Positions 3,689 through 59,951 are shown, counted from the first letter of the stretch. The stretch: DNA of 64,000 bases from a virus (IMGVR_UViG_3300033146_001759:8958-72957); one strand, 5' to 3'. Program-made: numbers and translations. The notes: generated from the letters alone by a model not told the origin.

Positions 3689-3855
3689 GGAAATCGAAAC
3701 CACATTAGTTCAGGTAAGGTCCTGATATAAGTGATGAAAAAAACATCATCATCTCAGGTCTATGGGAAGTAAATTTATTGATAACCCTAACCCGGTGGTT
3801 TAATCAGAATATAACTGAAAAAAACATGTAGGTTCGAGTCCTTCTATGACAACAA
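3689..3855 (+). ncRNA. candidate structured ncRNA with tRNA-like T-arm at the 3' end
   Basis: GC-enriched and non-coding. Helix AAACCAC(3697-3703)/GTGGTTT(3795-3801); hairpins TCAGG/CCTGA, TGATG/CATCA and TCAG/CTGA; GTAGGTTCGAGTCCT near the 3' end. Confidence 0.55.
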
Positions 3856-6383: not shown

Positions 6384-6848
6384 ATGGGAAAATTAAAAAT
6401 AAAAAACGAAATTTCATTAAAAAATAAAAAAGCATTTTTTAATTATGAAATATTAGAGGTATTTGAAGCAGGAATAGTATTAGTTGGTTCTGAAGTAAAA
6501 TCCATTAGAAATAGTAATGTTAGTTTTACAGATTCATATTGTATTTTTAATAATGATACAGAATTATTTTTAAAAAATCTACATATAGACACATATAAAA
6601 ATACATCATATAATGAACATGATCCAAAAAGAGAAAGAAAGTTATTACTAACCAAAAAAGAGTTACTTAAACTTAATGAAAAGGTCAAAAAACAAGGAAT
6701 AACAATACTACCACTAAAAATATATTTTAAAAATGGAAAAGTAAAAATAAATATAGGTCTAGCCAGAGGTAAAAAACAACACGACAAAAGAGAATCAATT
6801 AAAGAAAAAGACATTAAACGAGAATTAGATAGAAATATTAAACGATGA
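6384..6848 (+). CDS. smpB: SsrA-binding protein SmpB
   Basis: NKKAFFNYEILEVFEAGIVLVGSEVKSIR, RERKLLL and LARGKKQHDKRESIK. Confidence 0.96.
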   Translation: MGKLKIKNEISLKNKKAFFNYEILEVFEAGIVLVGSEVKSIRNSNVSFTDSYCIFNNDTELFLKNLHIDTYKNTSYNEHDPKRERKLLLTKKELLKLNEKVKKQGITILPLKIYFKNGKVKINIGLARGKKQHDKRESIKEKDIKRELDRNIKR

Positions 6849-6985
6849 TACCAACAACATTCACATTAAATATTTTCCATGAAGATAAGCAACAAATAAT
6901 AAACCACATATCTGATCATTATGATTTATCTATATTCAAAAATATTAATAAATAAGAAAAAATTATAAACCAAGTAACAATTTTT

Positions 6986-7171
6986 TTGATTTTTTTCAAT
7001 AATAATAATATTTTTAATGATAAATTAACAATATACATAAAAAACAATAAATATAATGGGTTTGATAAAGACTTCTTAAACACAGAACAATTAGAAACCA
7101 TTATCAACAGTAAAACATTTATCAATAAATTAAGAGTACTAAAATTAAAATCTATTTTAAAATATGATTAA
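6986..7171 (+). CDS. small hypothetical protein with RxxKLKSIL motif (true start uncertain)
   Basis: Ends LRVLKLKSILKYD. Confidence 0.5.
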   Translation: MIFFNNNNIFNDKLTIYIKNNKYNGFDKDFLNTEQLETIINSKTFINKLRVLKLKSILKYD

Positions 7172-7445
7172 TAATACAACATTAAATACATTACAATCAA
7201 AAATGAATATTTTTGATAAAAACATTAAACTATTATTAATAGATGAAGATACATCTTTAATAGCATTATATAGAAATAAAATATATCAAACAAATATTAG
7301 AACATTAAATAGTTCAGACAATAATTATATATTAAATAGTAATATAAATATAATAGAAAAATTAATCAACATAATTAAAAATGATCAATTTTATTTAAGA
7401 AGTAATAAATTAAGAACAATTTTAAAAAAAAACAAAAACATTTAA
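7164..7445 (+). CDS. small hypothetical protein with RxxKLRTIL motif
   Basis: Ends LRSNKLRTILKKNKNI. Confidence 0.6.
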   Translation: MINNTTLNTLQSKMNIFDKNIKLLLIDEDTSLIALYRNKIYQTNIRTLNSSDNNYILNSNINIIEKLINIIKNDQFYLRSNKLRTILKKNKNI

Positions 7446-8679: not shown

Positions 8680-9921
8680 ATGAATATAAAACAACAGTGT
8701 GAACAATATTTAAAATACAAATATGAATATTACATTATTGGTGAATCTAGTATTAGTGATTATGAATTTGATGTATTTGAACAAGACTTAATTAAAACCA
8801 ATGATAGTTTAGCACTACAAGTAACAAATCTTGTTGATTTCCCATCATTAAAAACAATAAAAAGTATTGGTTTAAATATTGAAAATATAGCACCCACATA
8901 TAAAGTAAAACGTGATGATGCTGATTATAAACACTCAACATTGATGCTTTCAACACAAAAAATTCAAGTTAACGATGAAGACAATTTACCATTACACGAA
9001 GTTAATCTATTTTTAAATAGAACACAATCACCTTATTATGAATGTGGACCAAAATATGATGGAAATGGATTAGATGTTTTATATATAAATGGTAAATTAG
9101 AAAAAATATTAACTCGTGGGGATAAATTATATGGTAAAGATAAAACTAAAAAACTTAGCTTATTAGTACCATCAACAATCCCAATGAAAGGTAATATTGA
9201 AGTTAGAGGGGAAGTTGTAGTAAATGAAAAATATTGGAAAGAATTTTTCTCAAGAAATGACCCAAATAATCCTGATAATGCAAGAAATTGGGTTGCTGGA
9301 ATAATATCCAAAGAAAATTATTATATTGAGGAATTAAATGAATTAGTTTTTGTTGCGTTTTCTATGGTTGAAGTTAAAAACGAAAAACCAAACTATATAG
9401 AAAATGAAATAATAAAATTAAAGGAAAATGGATTCAACAAAAACCATGATCCATTCATGATTAAAATCAAAGGAATTAATGATTTTAAAGATATGTATTT
9501 TAAATATAAAAAATATAGAGATGATTGTGAATTTATGTTAGATGGTATTGTTATTAAATACCCAGAACATATAAGAAATAGTCTTGGTGTAAACAATAAG
9601 TATCCTAAATGGTCTGTTGCTATAAAATTCATCCCAGATGTAGTTAAGACAATGATTAAAGAGATTATTTGGTCATTGGGTAAAGATGGTCATTTAACCC
9701 CAATCGCTATCTTAGAGCCAGTAGAATTACTTGGTACAATGGTTAGAAAAGCAAGTTTAGCAAACTTAGGTAATATTCAAAGACGTGGTGCTTATCCTGG
9801 TGCAATAGTTTCCCTTAAAAAAAGTGGAGAAATCATACCAATGATTATAGATGTTTTAGTTAAAAGTCCAAAACACGATATATACGAAAAAGAATTAAAT
9901 GATTATTTATTAACACATTAA
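8680..9921 (+). CDS. ligA: NAD-dependent DNA ligase, short form (adenylation and OB domains only)
   Basis: ISDYEFD, PKYDG, TRGD, EVRGEV, DGIVIK, WSVAIKF and KSGEIIP; no Zn-finger, HhH or BRCT; TACCTTTG promoter at 8648-8655. Confidence 0.9.
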   Translation: MNIKQQCEQYLKYKYEYYIIGESSISDYEFDVFEQDLIKTNDSLALQVTNLVDFPSLKTIKSIGLNIENIAPTYKVKRDDADYKHSTLMLSTQKIQVNDEDNLPLHEVNLFLNRTQSPYYECGPKYDGNGLDVLYINGKLEKILTRGDKLYGKDKTKKLSLLVPSTIPMKGNIEVRGEVVVNEKYWKEFFSRNDPNNPDNARNWVAGIISKENYYIEELNELVFVAFSMVEVKNEKPNYIENEIIKLKENGFNKNHDPFMIKIKGINDFKDMYFKYKKYRDDCEFMLDGIVIKYPEHIRNSLGVNNKYPKWSVAIKFIPDVVKTMIKEIIWSLGKDGHLTPIAILEPVELLGTMVRKASLANLGNIQRRGAYPGAIVSLKKSGEIIPMIIDVLVKSPKHDIYEKELNDYLLTH

Positions 9922-45937: not shown

Positions 45938-46174
45938 AGTTCTTATTTCGTTGGTTGAATTATATTTATTCCTTTATAATTTGGTATATTATAATTATTA
46001 ATATATGTTTCTTGTTTTAAAATTGTTGATTGTAATGTTTTAATATTTTCTTGTGTTAAATAAAAACCATCTTCGGTGCTCATCCATATTATATTATTGA
46101 TTTTTATCATATTATACTTTACCATAATATATTTTTTGTTTATTTTTTATTTTATAGTAATATATTTTTTTTGT

Positions 46175-46507
46175 TTATTTTTTATAATCATCTTCAAAAA
46201 ACCATAATTCATCAATATCAAATAAACTAATTTCTAAATTAGTAAACATACCAATATCTTCATTATACTTATCCGTTGAAACAAACATATAACACCATTC
46301 CTCAATCGTTGAAATATCCCAATTAGATATAATATATTCAAATGTATTACCTTTTTTAAACATCCTCATTAAACTAGGTTTATGATTTATAAAGAAATAT
46401 TTATTAAATTTTTTTATAAAAATTCTTTTACGATTATCAAAAGTATATGCTATTTTTGACATATATTTATAATTATATATATCCTTTATTTTTTCTTCCC
46501 TAGTCAT
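46175..46507 (-). CDS. hypothetical protein
   Basis: 110 aa ORF. Confidence 0.6.
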   Translation of the reverse strand: MTREEKIKDIYNYKYMSKIAYTFDNRKRIFIKKFNKYFFINHKPSLMRMFKKGNTFEYIISNWDISTIEEWCYMFVSTDKYNEDIGMFTNLEISLFDIDELWFFEDDYKK

Positions 46508-46608
46508 TTTTTAAATATTCTCAATATTGTTTTTATTTTTTTTATCCGTTCCTTATTTAAATCAACCCATATTACATCTAATTTATATGGCTTTTTTTTT
46601 ATATACAT
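46504..46608 (-). CDS. 34-aa microprotein with RxxKIKTIL motif (not in the ORF track)
   Basis: Manual translation MYIKKKPYKLDVIWVDLNKERIKKIKTILRIFKK; ATGA overlap with the next gene. Confidence 0.5.
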   Translation of the reverse strand: MYIKKKPYKLDVIWVDLNKERIKKIKTILRIFKK

Positions 46609-46622
46609 ATATTCATTTTTCA

Positions 46623-46979
46623 TCATATATTAAATTCAGTTATTATTTTATTATCTAAAAAATCATCATATTCTATTTTATATTTCATTTTTAATTTTTC
46701 TATTATATCTTCTTCTAAATAATCTATAAAATAATCACCATGCTTATCTTTAATATACCAATTAGCACCATTATCTATTAAAAAAAATAAATCACCTTTA
46801 TTTGCTAAATTATATTTAATCTTTCTCGCTAACCACGTTATTACTGGCTCATTATTACTATTCATACTATTAATATCTGCACCATTTCTGATAGCCATTC
46901 TAACTTGCTGTATATTATTATTAAACATACCAACTTGTAAATCGTTATCTTTATTGAATTTTTTCTGTTCTTTAATCAT
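46623..46979 (-). CDS. ankyrin-repeat protein with FNI C-terminus
   Basis: AIRNGADIN and LIDNGANW..KDKHG..FIDYL; ends TEFNI. Confidence 0.8.
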   Translation of the reverse strand: MIKEQKKFNKDNDLQVGMFNNNIQQVRMAIRNGADINSMNSNNEPVITWLARKIKYNLANKGDLFFLIDNGANWYIKDKHGDYFIDYLEEDIIEKLKMKYKIEYDDFLDNKIITEFNI

Positions 46980-47000
46980 ACATTATATATAAAAAATAAA

Positions 47001-47246
47001 TCACATGAACGTAATCAGGATTCTGTTTTATGTTATCATTTAACTAAGATTTTTAAATCTTCTCATAATATTGATATTACTATCAACGAGTGCCACAACC
47101 CAACTATTATAAAATTGCTCACCTTCTAAGTTTGTTTGTGTTGCATCCTTGGAAGTACTAATGATATAATATCTCCTTCCGTAAGCAAAGATGTCCTGAA
47201 TTTCCTCAACACCAATAAAATAGTGCAGCGATAACTCTTCTTTGTA
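47001..47246 (-). ncRNA. rnpB: RNase P RNA, minimal form
   Basis: CR-I GAGGAAATTCAGGAC and CR-V ACAGAATCCTGATTA pair as P4 (TCAGGA/TCCTGA); P2 GTTATCG/TGATAAC; P3 hairpin; TTGCTTAC/GTGAGCAA helix; CR-IV-like AGTTAAATGAT. Confidence 0.88.
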
Positions 47247-47248
47247 AT

Positions 47249-47566
47249 TTACTTTTTAACTTTATTAACTATTTCAAATATTGGTAATTCCATTAAATTA
47301 TCCTTTAATGTATCATTATGTATTGATATAATATGCTCATGATATAATTTATCTTTTGACATAAATTCATCAACATGTACTATTTTTGATCCTATAACCA
47401 ATTTACCATCATCGGAATAAACTACTCTATAATCATCACCTTTTTTTATAGCATCCATTACAGTTTTATATGAAAAAATAAATTCTATTTCTTTATATTC
47501 TGGACTAAATATCAATTTAAAATTTTTATTGTCTTTTGTTTTTGCTATAATATAATATGTTACCAT
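47249..47566 (-). CDS. hypothetical protein
   Basis: 105 aa ORF immediately upstream of rnpB. Confidence 0.65.
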   Translation of the reverse strand: MVTYYIIAKTKDNKNFKLIFSPEYKEIEFIFSYKTVMDAIKKGDDYRVVYSDDGKLVIGSKIVHVDEFMSKDKLYHEHIISIHNDTLKDNLMELPIFEIVNKVKK

Positions 47567-47609
47567 CTTTTTATTTTTTATTCTTTATAGTTATAAAAAT
47601 TTCATTTGT

Positions 47610-48026
47610 TTATTTTTTATTCACTATAACTTTTGAGTATCTTATAATCACACCATTCAACATATATCCTTTTTTAAGTATCCTCACAACGACATTTTCT
47701 GAATAATTATTATCCCAAATTGTTGATATTGCTTCATGATATTCTGGATCAAATATTTCACCAATTTCACCAAATTCTTCAACATTATGTTTTTTTAAAA
47801 ATAATATAAATTTATTATAAATATATTTTAAACCACCATCATTAATAGATTGTTGTTTTAACGACAATTCAAAATCATCAACAATTTCTAAAATTTCTGT
47901 TATAAAAACTTCTTCAACCGTTTTCACAAAAAGTGTTTTTTCTTTATCTATTCTTTTTTTATAATTTTCAAAATCAGAATATAATCTCAGATATTGATCA
48001 GATAAATTTTTATATTTTTTTTCCAT
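47610..48026 (-). CDS. grpE: nucleotide exchange factor GrpE (short N-terminus)
   Basis: YLRLYSDFENYKKR, FDPEYHEAI and KGYMLNGVIIRYSKVIV. Confidence 0.92.
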   Translation of the reverse strand: MEKKYKNLSDQYLRLYSDFENYKKRIDKEKTLFVKTVEEVFITEILEIVDDFELSLKQQSINDGGLKYIYNKFILFLKKHNVEEFGEIGEIFDPEYHEAISTIWDNNYSENVVVRILKKGYMLNGVIIRYSKVIVNKK

Positions 48027-48327
48027 TATTGTTATTATTTTTAAATCTTTTTGGGTGTGCATCTTTCATCACATTAAAGATAAACCCTTCTGCAACAATT
48101 TCACCATATTCACATATCGGTTCTGCCATACTTTCACAACCAAGAAACACATTTACACCATTTATTTTTATATCTATCCCTAATAATCCTATTTTTTTTT
48201 CATTAGTAGGAGATAATCTATACATATCATCTCCAATTATTTCTATTTTAGTACCACCAAAACAACGCTCCATTATATTTATTGCACCATATATAATTGG
48301 TGATATTTCTTTATTTTTTTCTTTCAT
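48010..48327 (-). CDS. hypothetical protein
   Basis: 105 aa ORF. Confidence 0.6.
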   Translation of the reverse strand: MKEKNKEISPIIYGAINIMERCFGGTKIEIIGDDMYRLSPTNEKKIGLLGIDIKINGVNVFLGCESMAEPICEYGEIVAEGFIFNVMKDAHPKRFKNNNNNGKKI

Positions 48328-48330
48328 ATT

Positions 48331-49788
48331 TTAATAATCTATTATTGATGATTCTAATTCTTCTATTTCTTTTTCAGTATGAAAAATCTCTACGTTTTTT
48401 TCTTTCATTATACCTTTATAAACTTTTCTTTCAGCATATATATCTGTTAATACTTGATTTACTACACCAATTTCATTTCTAAAAACAGCACCAGAAACCG
48501 TAACTATATCTGTTTCATTTATCTCTACTTGTTGACCATTAAACAACGAATATTTTTTTCCTTTTATTTTTTGTCCTTTATATGAATCTGCACTAATATT
48601 AAATTGTCTCATTGTTGTAGGGTATAATGATGCAAAATCATAACACGCAGTCCACGTAGCCATACCCCTAATTGGTTCTTTTACCCAACCACCCTTTACT
48701 GCAGATGCTTCTGATATATCGTTTTTTACTAATTTAATATTTTTTAAATCAATAAGTTTTTTTCTTAAAATACCCTCCGTAACATTTAATGTAGATAATG
48801 CTTTATTAACAGTAGTTCTACTTAAAGTAGCAATACCATACATAATATCAGCTAACTTAGTTTTTTCATGTATTAACTGAACCAATATACTATCAATAGC
48901 ATTATAGTATATAAATTTCTTAAAGTCTTGACTATATAATGTTTTCAAATTACCATCATAATCAACTTTCTTCAACTTCAATACTGTTTCTGCAACAAAA
49001 TTTAATGCATTTGATTCTTTAATCTTTATAGATTGATCCCATTTTTCAAAAATTTCCATATAATCAAATAATAATCTATGTTTTGGTAATTCTGCAAAAT
49101 TCCGTGGATCTCTTTCATTTAATGGTTCTAATTTATTTGTGAAAGATGATACATCTGGATTTATTCCAATTTTTCTTGCCCTTGCAACTAAATATACCCA
49201 ATCAAAATGAATAAAATTCCAACCAGTTAATACTGGCATTTTTGGGACCATATTAATGAAAAAATTCTTCAACATTTCAAATTCAGACTTATATTGGATA
49301 TATTTAAAATCCCATTGTGTATTAAACTTATCACCATAATCATTATTAATATCATTACCTATTGCTTTTACTTCTTTTTTTGTTAATGGGTCAGTACCAA
49401 TAACTAATACTTTATCTTTAACAACAATTGAAATAGATATTACTCTTGTTCTTGCTAATTCTGGTTGTAATTTTTCTGTGGAAATCTCAGTTTCAATATC
49501 AATAAAAAATATATTTGGTTCATTATAATCAAATATTTCTCCTTGTATATCTTCTGGTAAACTTTCTAAATAATCATAAATAGAATATTTATTAGGATAT
49601 TTCGTATAAATTTCTTTTGTTGGTTTGCCATCCCAAGTAACATATTTTTCGTGCCTTTCTGGGTCATCTAAACTTGTAGCTATAAACTTAGTTGGTGTCC
49701 AAGGAAAATATTTTAATTTTATATTTCCTCTCTTATCAAAATGTGATACTATTAAGTTATGATTTGAATATTCGTAATCTATTATCAT
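48331..49788 (-). CDS. family B DNA polymerase, N-terminal subunit (exonuclease and motif A)
   Basis: FIDIET (ExoI), GWNFIHFD (ExoII), YNAID (ExoIII) and YDFASLYP (motif A); ends before motifs B and C. Confidence 0.9.
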   Translation of the reverse strand: MIIDYEYSNHNLIVSHFDKRGNIKLKYFPWTPTKFIATSLDDPERHEKYVTWDGKPTKEIYTKYPNKYSIYDYLESLPEDIQGEIFDYNEPNIFFIDIETEISTEKLQPELARTRVISISIVVKDKVLVIGTDPLTKKEVKAIGNDINNDYGDKFNTQWDFKYIQYKSEFEMLKNFFINMVPKMPVLTGWNFIHFDWVYLVARARKIGINPDVSSFTNKLEPLNERDPRNFAELPKHRLLFDYMEIFEKWDQSIKIKESNALNFVAETVLKLKKVDYDGNLKTLYSQDFKKFIYYNAIDSILVQLIHEKTKLADIMYGIATLSRTTVNKALSTLNVTEGILRKKLIDLKNIKLVKNDISEASAVKGGWVKEPIRGMATWTACYDFASLYPTTMRQFNISADSYKGQKIKGKKYSLFNGQQVEINETDIVTVSGAVFRNEIGVVNQVLTDIYAERKVYKGIMKEKNVEIFHTEKEIEELESSIIDY

Positions 49789-59876: not shown

Positions 59877-59951
59877 TTAGGTTGATAGGATTCGAACCTA
59901 CGACTGACCCGGACATGTACCGGACCCTCTGACCAACTGAGCTACAACCCA
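59877..59951 (-). tRNA. tRNA with CAT anticodon (Met or Ile2), atypical, no encoded CCA
   Basis: TGGGTTG acceptor, TAGCTCAGTTGGTCAGAG D-arm, TCCGG-TACATGT-CCGGG anticodon arm, GTAGGTTCGAATCCTAT T-arm. Confidence 0.8.

Follow-up and report, generated by a model that had tools for sequence, protein, structure and literature searches.

Does a phage encode its own RNase P RNA, and can that RNA have lost its specificity domain (S-domain)? The question is raised by a short intergenic stretch in the window analysed here, a 64,000-nucleotide stretch of viral DNA, for which an earlier note had proposed a minimal RNase P RNA encoded by the phage, its S-domain being cut to about 55 nt. RNase P is the RNA enzyme that trims tRNA precursors, and its RNA is among the few universal ribozymes. 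To our knowledge, bacteria are regarded as invariably having the two-domain design of this RNA, and no natural form devoid of the S-domain is known apart from the archaeal type T RNAs.

The window comes from an IMG/VR virus contig estimated to be 17% complete. Its genes include those for a tail sheath, a major head protein, a head protease, a portal protein and an NAD-dependent ligase. The head and tail genes among these identify the carrier as a tailed phage, in agreement with the phage origin claimed earlier, and it is probably large. Its G+C content is approximately 0.18-0.30 along the window, 0.21 around the RNA gene and about 22% overall. The RNA gene has as its neighbours genes for a GrpE homologue and for a fragment of a family B DNA polymerase, and no gene nearby has to do with RNA processing.

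The GrpE homologue (47610-48062, minus strand) matched nearly the full profile at 123.2 bits and lies directly upstream of the ORF adjoining the RNA. The family B DNA polymerase ORF (48331-49788, minus strand) holds only the exonuclease domain and positions 33-142 of the 453 in the polymerase-domain profile, and the next ORF (48010-48327, minus strand) has no Pfam match; the phage polymerase may be split, interrupted or truncated. A small ORF (46175-46507, minus strand) matched DUF285 at 29 bits. This family is named for Mycoplasma proteins, and its presence in a phage of 22% G+C is a weak hint about the host lineage. Searching with the neighbouring polymerase fragment found no relatives of the carrier phage, and comparing 13 proteins of the window with every fetched locus by tblastn revealed no shared neighbours and no synteny. 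Between 3500 and 4100, where the earlier note had placed another RNA (3689-3855), Rfam gave nothing at E <=1 except a spurious snoRNA (E 0.9).

The two P4-region motifs named in the earlier note are indeed present on the minus strand of the window, GAGGAAATTCAGGAC at 47207-47193 and ACAGAATCCTGATTA at 47026-47012. The ends of the predicted RNA were set by P1 pairing, which was also recovered by the minimum free energy (MFE) fold. This gives a 253-nt RNA (46998-47250, minus strand), so that the locus first proposed (47001-47246) stands but its ends do not. The gene is intergenic, with minus-strand ORFs 47249-47566 and 46623-46979 on either side, and no minus-strand ORF of at least 30 amino acids covers it. 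Its 5' end overlaps the TAA stop of ORF 47249-47566, and a U-run follows its 3' end. Local G+C is 0.32 versus 0.21 in the surrounding 2 kb. The MFE fold also recovered P3, P15, P16 and both distal hairpins; its stability is unremarkable (z = -1.22), 20 of 200 shuffled sequences folding equally well or better, and does not by itself argue for a structure. Scans of regulatory signals returned 17 promoter-like sites for 13.9 expected, none of them just upstream on the minus strand, and no terminator.

The Rfam covariance-model check suggested earlier was performed over positions 46700-47550 with permissive filters. RF00010, the bacterial class A (type A) RNase P RNA for which E. coli M1 RNA is the model, aligned end to end (model positions 1-367) with 46997-47247, with a sub-threshold score of 35.1 bits (E 2.9e-9 in this 851-nt search). 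The whole 72,957-bp record gave the same single match (35.1 bits, E 6e-11), and RF00010 was the best match within the RNase P clan. CR-I, CR-IV and CR-V occur in canonical order and line up with the RF00010 consensus, as does the GCAA of J5/15. The Rfam gathering cut-off of this family is 100 bits, and the window RNA remains below it because about 145 S-domain positions of the model (approximately 73-217) are collapsed to approximately 36 nt. At gathering thresholds the 64-kb window contained no RNase P match, only a tRNA-Met (59877-59951), and no dedicated family of Rfam 15 reached threshold at the locus.

A structure was then read on the minus strand. P1 is formed by P1a, in which AAATTACA (47243-47250) pairs with TGTGATTT (46998-47005), and by P1b (GAA 47238-47240, TTC 47007-47009). 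P2 and P3 were both found, as the earlier note had stated: GTTATC (47230-47235) pairs with GATAAC (47032-47037) in P2, and the P3 hairpin (47209-47226), seen in the structure reading and in the MFE fold, consists of GCACTA/TGGTGT with a TTTTAT loop. The Rfam alignment places CR-I, the first of the two motifs, at 47193-47207 and, together with covariation, CR-V (ACAGAATCCTGATTAC) at 47011-47026. These regions provide the 5' strand (47195-47202, with a bulged U at 47199) and the 3' strand (47013-47019) of P4, a seven-pair pseudoknot (AAT(T)CAGG/CCTGATT). The window RNA thereby possesses the long-range CR-I/CR-V helix with bulged U expected of class A. It has U-A and A-U pairs where relatives have C-G/G-C and A-U/G-C, both strands having changed and the bulged U being retained; the compensatory P4 changes reported earlier are thus genuine. 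The unusual U-A pair recurs in an independent metagenome contig (L062), again changed on both strands.

P5 pairs CATC (47190-47193) with GATG (47144-47147). Just after its 5' strand, TTGCTTAC (47181-47188) pairs with GTGAGCAA (47115-47122), which lies within the loop closed by P16. This helix had already been noticed; it can now be assigned as the P6 pseudoknot. Rfam alignment and structure reading place J5/15 (GCAA), P15, P16 and L15 at 47094-47144, with P15 formed by CACA (47137-47140) and TGTG (47094-47097), P16 by AACT (47129-47132) and AGTT (47102-47105), and the 3' side of L15 by GGGT (47098-47101). CR-IV/J18-2 (AGTTAAATGA, 47036-47045, from the Rfam alignment) is invariant or nearly so in alignments A1 and A5. 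Between P15 and CR-IV, structure reading and MFE fold show two hairpins (47046-47090), the first with a GTAA tetraloop (47062-47090), the second P18-like (AAGATT/AATCTT, 47046-47061). P17 is absent from the window RNA. The class A helices P1, P2, P3, P5, P15 and P16 and the P6 pseudoknot are present, and the sequence as read retains the whole catalytic domain (P1-P5, J5/15, P15/L15, P16, an extended P6, CR-I, CR-IV and CR-V).

The S-domain of class A is missing from the window RNA as regards P8-P14, CR-II and CR-III. What remains is 30 nt (47151-47180), in which P7 (GGAAG/CTTCC) closes a 20-nt loop or mini-hairpin. The reduction seen earlier is therefore real, although the length of about 55 nt given for it is not. 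The supposed CR-II/III remnant (TGCAACACAAACAAAC) belongs to the catalytic domain, being the P5 3' strand with J5/15, P15 and L15.

Motif scans of IMG/VR showed that dozens of viral contigs carry short, related genes resembling RNase P RNA. The pattern CR-I...CR-V at a spacing of 153-183 nt was found in 24 viral contigs, ten of which share the architecture of the window RNA when compared side by side. A covariance model restricted to nested helices (R1) was built from six viral sequences (L003, L009, L015, L021, L023 and L024), the window being excluded. R1 gave a single match in the 64 kb, full-length at 47000-47248 (71.1 bits, E 2.2e-16, model positions 1-231), and matched 21 of the 25 sources searched. 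A second, subfamily-specific pattern detected 29 viral loci (19 new), and full-length R1 matches of 185-293 nt were obtained in 30 of 30 sources, window included. Scans at spacings of 122-152 nt and 184-214 nt gave 20 and 18 loci; among 32 new short-spacing loci, 21 matched R1 at E <=1e-3, 12 of them with at least 67 bits. When six subfamily members were scanned (L003, L006, L012, L018, L023 and L025), none reached the RF00010 cut-off.

The subfamily pattern was also searched in 185,579 species genomes, where it occurred on 17 contigs, ten of them matching R1. The other seven match neither R1 nor RF00010 and were discarded as chance occurrences. All ten R1-matching contigs are metagenome-assembled and come from disparate phyla, and several lie beside tRNA arrays. 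These contigs (L045-L049, L051, L052, L054, L056 and L059) were binned as Gemmataceae, Planctomycetia, Opitutaceae, Algoriphagus, Flavobacteriales, Ilumatobacteraceae, Alcaligenaceae and Altiarchaeales; they probably represent prophages or phage contigs that were binned wrongly. Scanning metagenomes for the P4 variant of the window yielded L062, mentioned above, a family member at 72.5 bits. Using blastn, which has low sensitivity for a 230-nt structured RNA, we found nothing in 50,697 GenBank phage records for window positions 46000-48400, L015 or L008.

Other short RNase P-like genes with differently reduced S-domains were observed in viral tRNA arrays (L002/L005/L020, L004/L017, L007/L022, L008, L010/L013/L014, L011, L016 and L019). 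Two of them, L008 (269 nt, 136.2 bits) and L013 (236 nt, 105.5 bits), score above the RF00010 cut-off. This variety suggests that S-domain reduction in phages has occurred to several degrees or in several independent events. At a full-length-like spacing of 265-295 nt, CR-I...CR-V was found in 37 viral contigs (L096-L132), which may hold phage genes, flanks of proviruses or contaminating host DNA.

Covariation was assayed in two alignments. The first, A4, contains 30 sequences (25 distinct) and 49 pairs, with P4 and P6 added as pseudoknots. Standard pairs amounted to 96.3%, versus 74.6% with shuffled partners and 33-48% with slid partners, and 36 of the 49 pairs changed on both sides, in an alignment fitted to the nested helices of R1, which favours those helices. 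None of 500 shuffles reached any of the five measures. P4 and P6, which lie outside R1, were still 99-100% paired, with 2 and 3 covarying pairs. The second alignment, A5, involves no model fitting and is a plain MAFFT alignment of the window RNA and ten diverse relatives (11 distinct sequences, 39 pairs). This count excludes P1a, P3 and P18, which MAFFT could not align; the length of P3 differs among relatives. In A5, 97.4% of positions were paired, 25 of 39 pairs were compensatory and slid controls gave 30-46%; again none of 500 shuffles did as well, in a control that takes no account of relatedness among the sequences. The result with slid partners and the variety of distinct pair types argue for a structural signal.

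The values for individual helices were as follows. P1 columns were 92.9% paired with all 10 pairs covarying (A4), P1b was 97% paired (A5), and P2 was 95.3% paired with covariation in 6/6 pairs (A4). Pairing of P4 reached 99.4% in A4 and 98.7% in A5. P5 was 100% paired, with 4/4 pairs covarying in A4, and P7 was 100% paired with 3/5. For P6, which is 7-8 bp long, pairing was 99.4% (A4) and 100% (A5); this helix is not an alignment artefact because it is absent from the covariance model. P15 and P16 were 84.8% and 97.7% paired in A5 (2/3 and 4/4 pairs covarying). Their values in A4 (88.7% and 90.3%) were lowered because P18-bearing sequences are misaligned at P16-3'/L15/P15-3', R1 having no P18. 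The proposed structure, made up of P1-P7, P15 and P16 with P4 and P6 as pseudoknots, is conserved.

Given the sub-threshold Rfam score, a chance resemblance in AT-rich DNA has to be considered. It has a negligible probability: two independent models match (E 2.9e-9 and 2.2e-16), the match runs end to end and is the only one in 64 kb, and the covariation is common to dozens of sequences. The R1 match and the covariation in A4 and A5 rule this explanation out. The stretch 47250-46998 (minus strand) almost certainly encodes a phage homologue of the bacterial type A RNase P RNA. The RF00010 alignment, the independent R1 match and covariation uphold the original proposal of a phage RNase P RNA, the homologue having an intact catalytic core and a strongly reduced S-domain.

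The family being real, the copy in this AT-rich phage might nevertheless be a decaying relic that no longer functions. It is the most divergent of the 30 and has the lowest R1 score among the 30 matches (71.1 bits), its fold z-score is weak, no tRNA is adjacent, and the nearly invariant G at the P7/P5 junction is replaced by A. However, every helix is intact, and substitutions in P4, P5, P6, P7, P15 and P16 are compensated on both strands. Moreover, all columns invariant in A5 are kept, G+C is raised relative to the 21% background, and the RNA occupies the space between its neighbouring genes exactly, its own strand carrying no ORF across it. Decay is thus very improbable, and the window RNA is most probably selectively maintained.

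As a whole, the family is linked to tRNA arrays. The 312 tRNA genes predicted across the 30 loci share, without exception, the strand of the RNase P-like gene, and the nearest one is at most 10 nt away in 15 of 30 loci and at most 150 nt away in 20 of 30. A tmRNA is likewise present in several arrays, and GOLLD in one. In the latter (L011), GOLLD RNA (199.7 bits), tmRNA, 18 tRNAs and the RNase P-like RNA occupy one stretch and share one strand (2438-2853, 6827-7195, 8917-9147). Unusual tRNAs were seen near family members (L033 3246-3318; L040 2833-2905 and L044 7819-7891; L023 6094-6167), including an amber-reading one (anticodon CTA; tRNA-Pyl according to ARAGORN) and several whose anticodons have four bases. 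Pairing of the L15 GGU with a genome-encoded CCA was dropped as a genomic argument: CCA is present in only 47 of the 312 tRNA genes, 24 of these from a single locus. Altogether, these loci represent a widespread, previously unannotated phage family of miniature S-domain-less RNase P RNAs, most members of which lie within tRNA arrays.

The window copy departs from this arrangement. The only tRNA in its record, which is estimated to be just 17% complete, is the tRNA-Met at 59877-59951, called by ARAGORN; it is an ordinary tRNA and lies 12.6 kb from the RNA gene. The atypical tRNA substrates and the Bacteroidota host considered in the earlier note are conjectural. Most relatives lack P18-like hairpins, which the window RNA shares with a minority of them; distal hairpins comparable to those of the window were found only in L006, L012, L018, L032, L034, L036 and L043. 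The clade of the window, with its extra hairpins, is mostly stand-alone: no tRNA was found in the fetched stretch of L006, L018, L032 and L034, and the nearest tRNA is 1.1-2.6 kb away in L012, L036, L039 and L041.

As the earlier note had stated for the window, no rnpA was detected; the RnpA profile PF00825 was found in none of ten phage records, i.e. that of the window and nine related ones (one complete with terminal repeats at 183,648 bp, one 85% complete, most incomplete). Because no examined phage record encodes RnpA, the phage RNA probably works as a holoenzyme with host RnpA. In the infected cell it would remove 5' leaders from tRNA precursors. Without the T-loop-binding S-domain, substrates would be recognized through the acceptor stem, the leader and the protein, and the catalytic core would be braced by the long invariant P6, standing in for the contacts lost between the domains. 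The phage might gain additional capacity to process large tRNA arrays, it might no longer depend on a host enzyme whose level may fall in the infected cell, or the RNA might release itself from array transcripts. The S-domain normally supplies most of the substrate affinity, and for this reason the activity could be poor. The full proposal, including catalysis on pre-tRNA by an S-domain-less phage RNase P ribozyme, appears reasonably likely, though less secure than the homology itself.

P2, P3, CR-IV and CR-V form the region that contacts the bacterial RNase P protein. All four are retained while the S-domain is lost, and this, together with the lack of a phage rnpA, would also suit a sponge or decoy that titrates host RnpA and shuts down host tRNA maturation with no catalysis. 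Such a role is discussed for the camelpox RNase P-like RNA, inactive in vitro, but sequestration is judged unlikely in that case (PMC3001073). For the phage RNA, the bulged U of P4, J5/15, P15/L15, P16 and P6 are unneeded for protein binding, yet they are conserved and covary. Moreover, most relatives lie in same-strand tRNA arrays, and blocking maturation of its own tRNAs would gain the phage nothing. The decoy is disfavoured because of these conserved catalytic elements and the linkage to phage tRNAs, and we consider it improbable.

Two further possibilities concern what a catalytic RNA would cleave. The stand-alone clade might be a retargeted endonuclease that cuts non-tRNA substrates instead of, or besides, pre-tRNAs, with phage polycistronic mRNAs and tRNA-like or hairpin structures as candidates. 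The location of the window copy and its nearest relatives, mostly away from tRNAs, and the two extra hairpins of the clade would fit this idea, and loss of the T-loop-reading S-domain would relax the need for a full tRNA shape. Cleavage of model hairpin substrates by catalytic-domain constructs is reported (PMC5839562). On the other hand, no candidate substrate was recognized, the catalytic core is the same as in array-embedded members, and these phages carry tRNAs elsewhere, so that retargeting seems rather unlikely.

More tentatively, the phage mini RNase P RNAs could be a self-contained tRNA-maturation module, acting in cis within the array and independently of host RNase P. The ribozyme would be transcribed within the phage tRNA array and would free itself and its neighbours; self-release is suggested by the gene lying within 10 nt of a tRNA gene in half of the loci. 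The S-domain would be unneeded because the substrates are in cis or at high local concentration. Phage translation would then be kept going independently of host RNase P, and the ribozyme might need no protein or might use a phage protein that has escaped recognition. The stand-alone clade of the window would represent a further step, a natural catalytic-domain ribozyme that is trans-acting or retargeted. This model is doubtful, and we prefer pre-tRNA cleavage with host RnpA.

These results suggest that phages carry a family of bacterial-type RNase P RNAs, diverse and covarying, whose S-domain was lost by evolution. Such a family would add RNase P to the translation machinery of large phages, beside tRNAs and tmRNA, and raises the question of phage takeover of host RnpA. 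It would also give dozens of natural sequences (185-293 nt) bearing on the roles of the S-domain, P6 and P18 in vivo. Because the genes fall below the Rfam cut-off, they are missed by standard pipelines, which constitutes an annotation blind spot. In the full-text literature searched, we found no description of a phage-encoded RNase P RNA; subscription journals and supplements lie outside that scope, and a prior description is possible.

Among known systems, the closest is the bacterial type A RNase P RNA. The window RNA shares with it the order and sequence of CR-I, CR-IV and CR-V, P1-P5 with the bulged-U P4, J5/15, P15-L15-P16 and P6. Judged from these features, it descends from the type A RNA and, by analogy, likely works in the same way. 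Unlike the 367-position type A model, it is 253 nt long and lacks P8-P14 and CR-II/III. P17 is also missing, and a longer P6 (7-8 bp) is formed directly from the P16-closed loop. Members of the phage family may have or lack P18, and the gene is phage-carried. The window RNA was filed as a structural variant and not as an ordinary member because it fails the RF00010 cut-off and lacks the S-domain features.

The archaeal type T RNAs of Thermoproteaceae (Pyrobaculum) resemble it only in the loss of the S-domain. No archaeal type T core was found in the window RNA, its best clan model being bacterial class A and its carrier a tailed phage. Type T RNA is archaeal and chromosomal, is the only RNase P RNA of the cell and works with archaeal proteins, whereas the window RNA has a bacterial type A core, is phage-carried and is presumably additional to the host's own RNase P RNA.

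Two natural cases share other features. Extra RNase P RNA copies with an altered specificity domain are reported in Mycobacterium austroafricanum and M. sp. YC-RL4; they are said to keep the conserved functional residues and are suspected of horizontal transfer (Behra et al. 2022, PMC9569102). These copies, which we liken by description only, are reported from bacterial chromosomes and are presented neither as belonging to phages nor as forming a family. The camelpox RNase P-like RNA is likewise a virus-encoded RNase P RNA homologue; it comes from a eukaryotic virus, is a relative of the nuclear RNA and is inactive in pre-tRNA processing in vitro (PMC3001073).

Finally, the engineered E. coli catalytic-domain ribozyme (Eco CP RPR; Mao et al. 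2018, PMC5839562) is also a catalytic domain devoid of the S-domain. In that study, the E. coli C-domain alone cleaves substrates, its efficiency needs a 'P6-mimic', and P18 brings no benefit once the S-domain is gone (PMC5839562). This dependence on P6 and dispensability of P18 closely match the invariant long P6 and optional P18 of the phage family. The Eco CP RPR is a laboratory deletion, whereas the phage family is natural and evolving, and retains P7 and a small hairpin.
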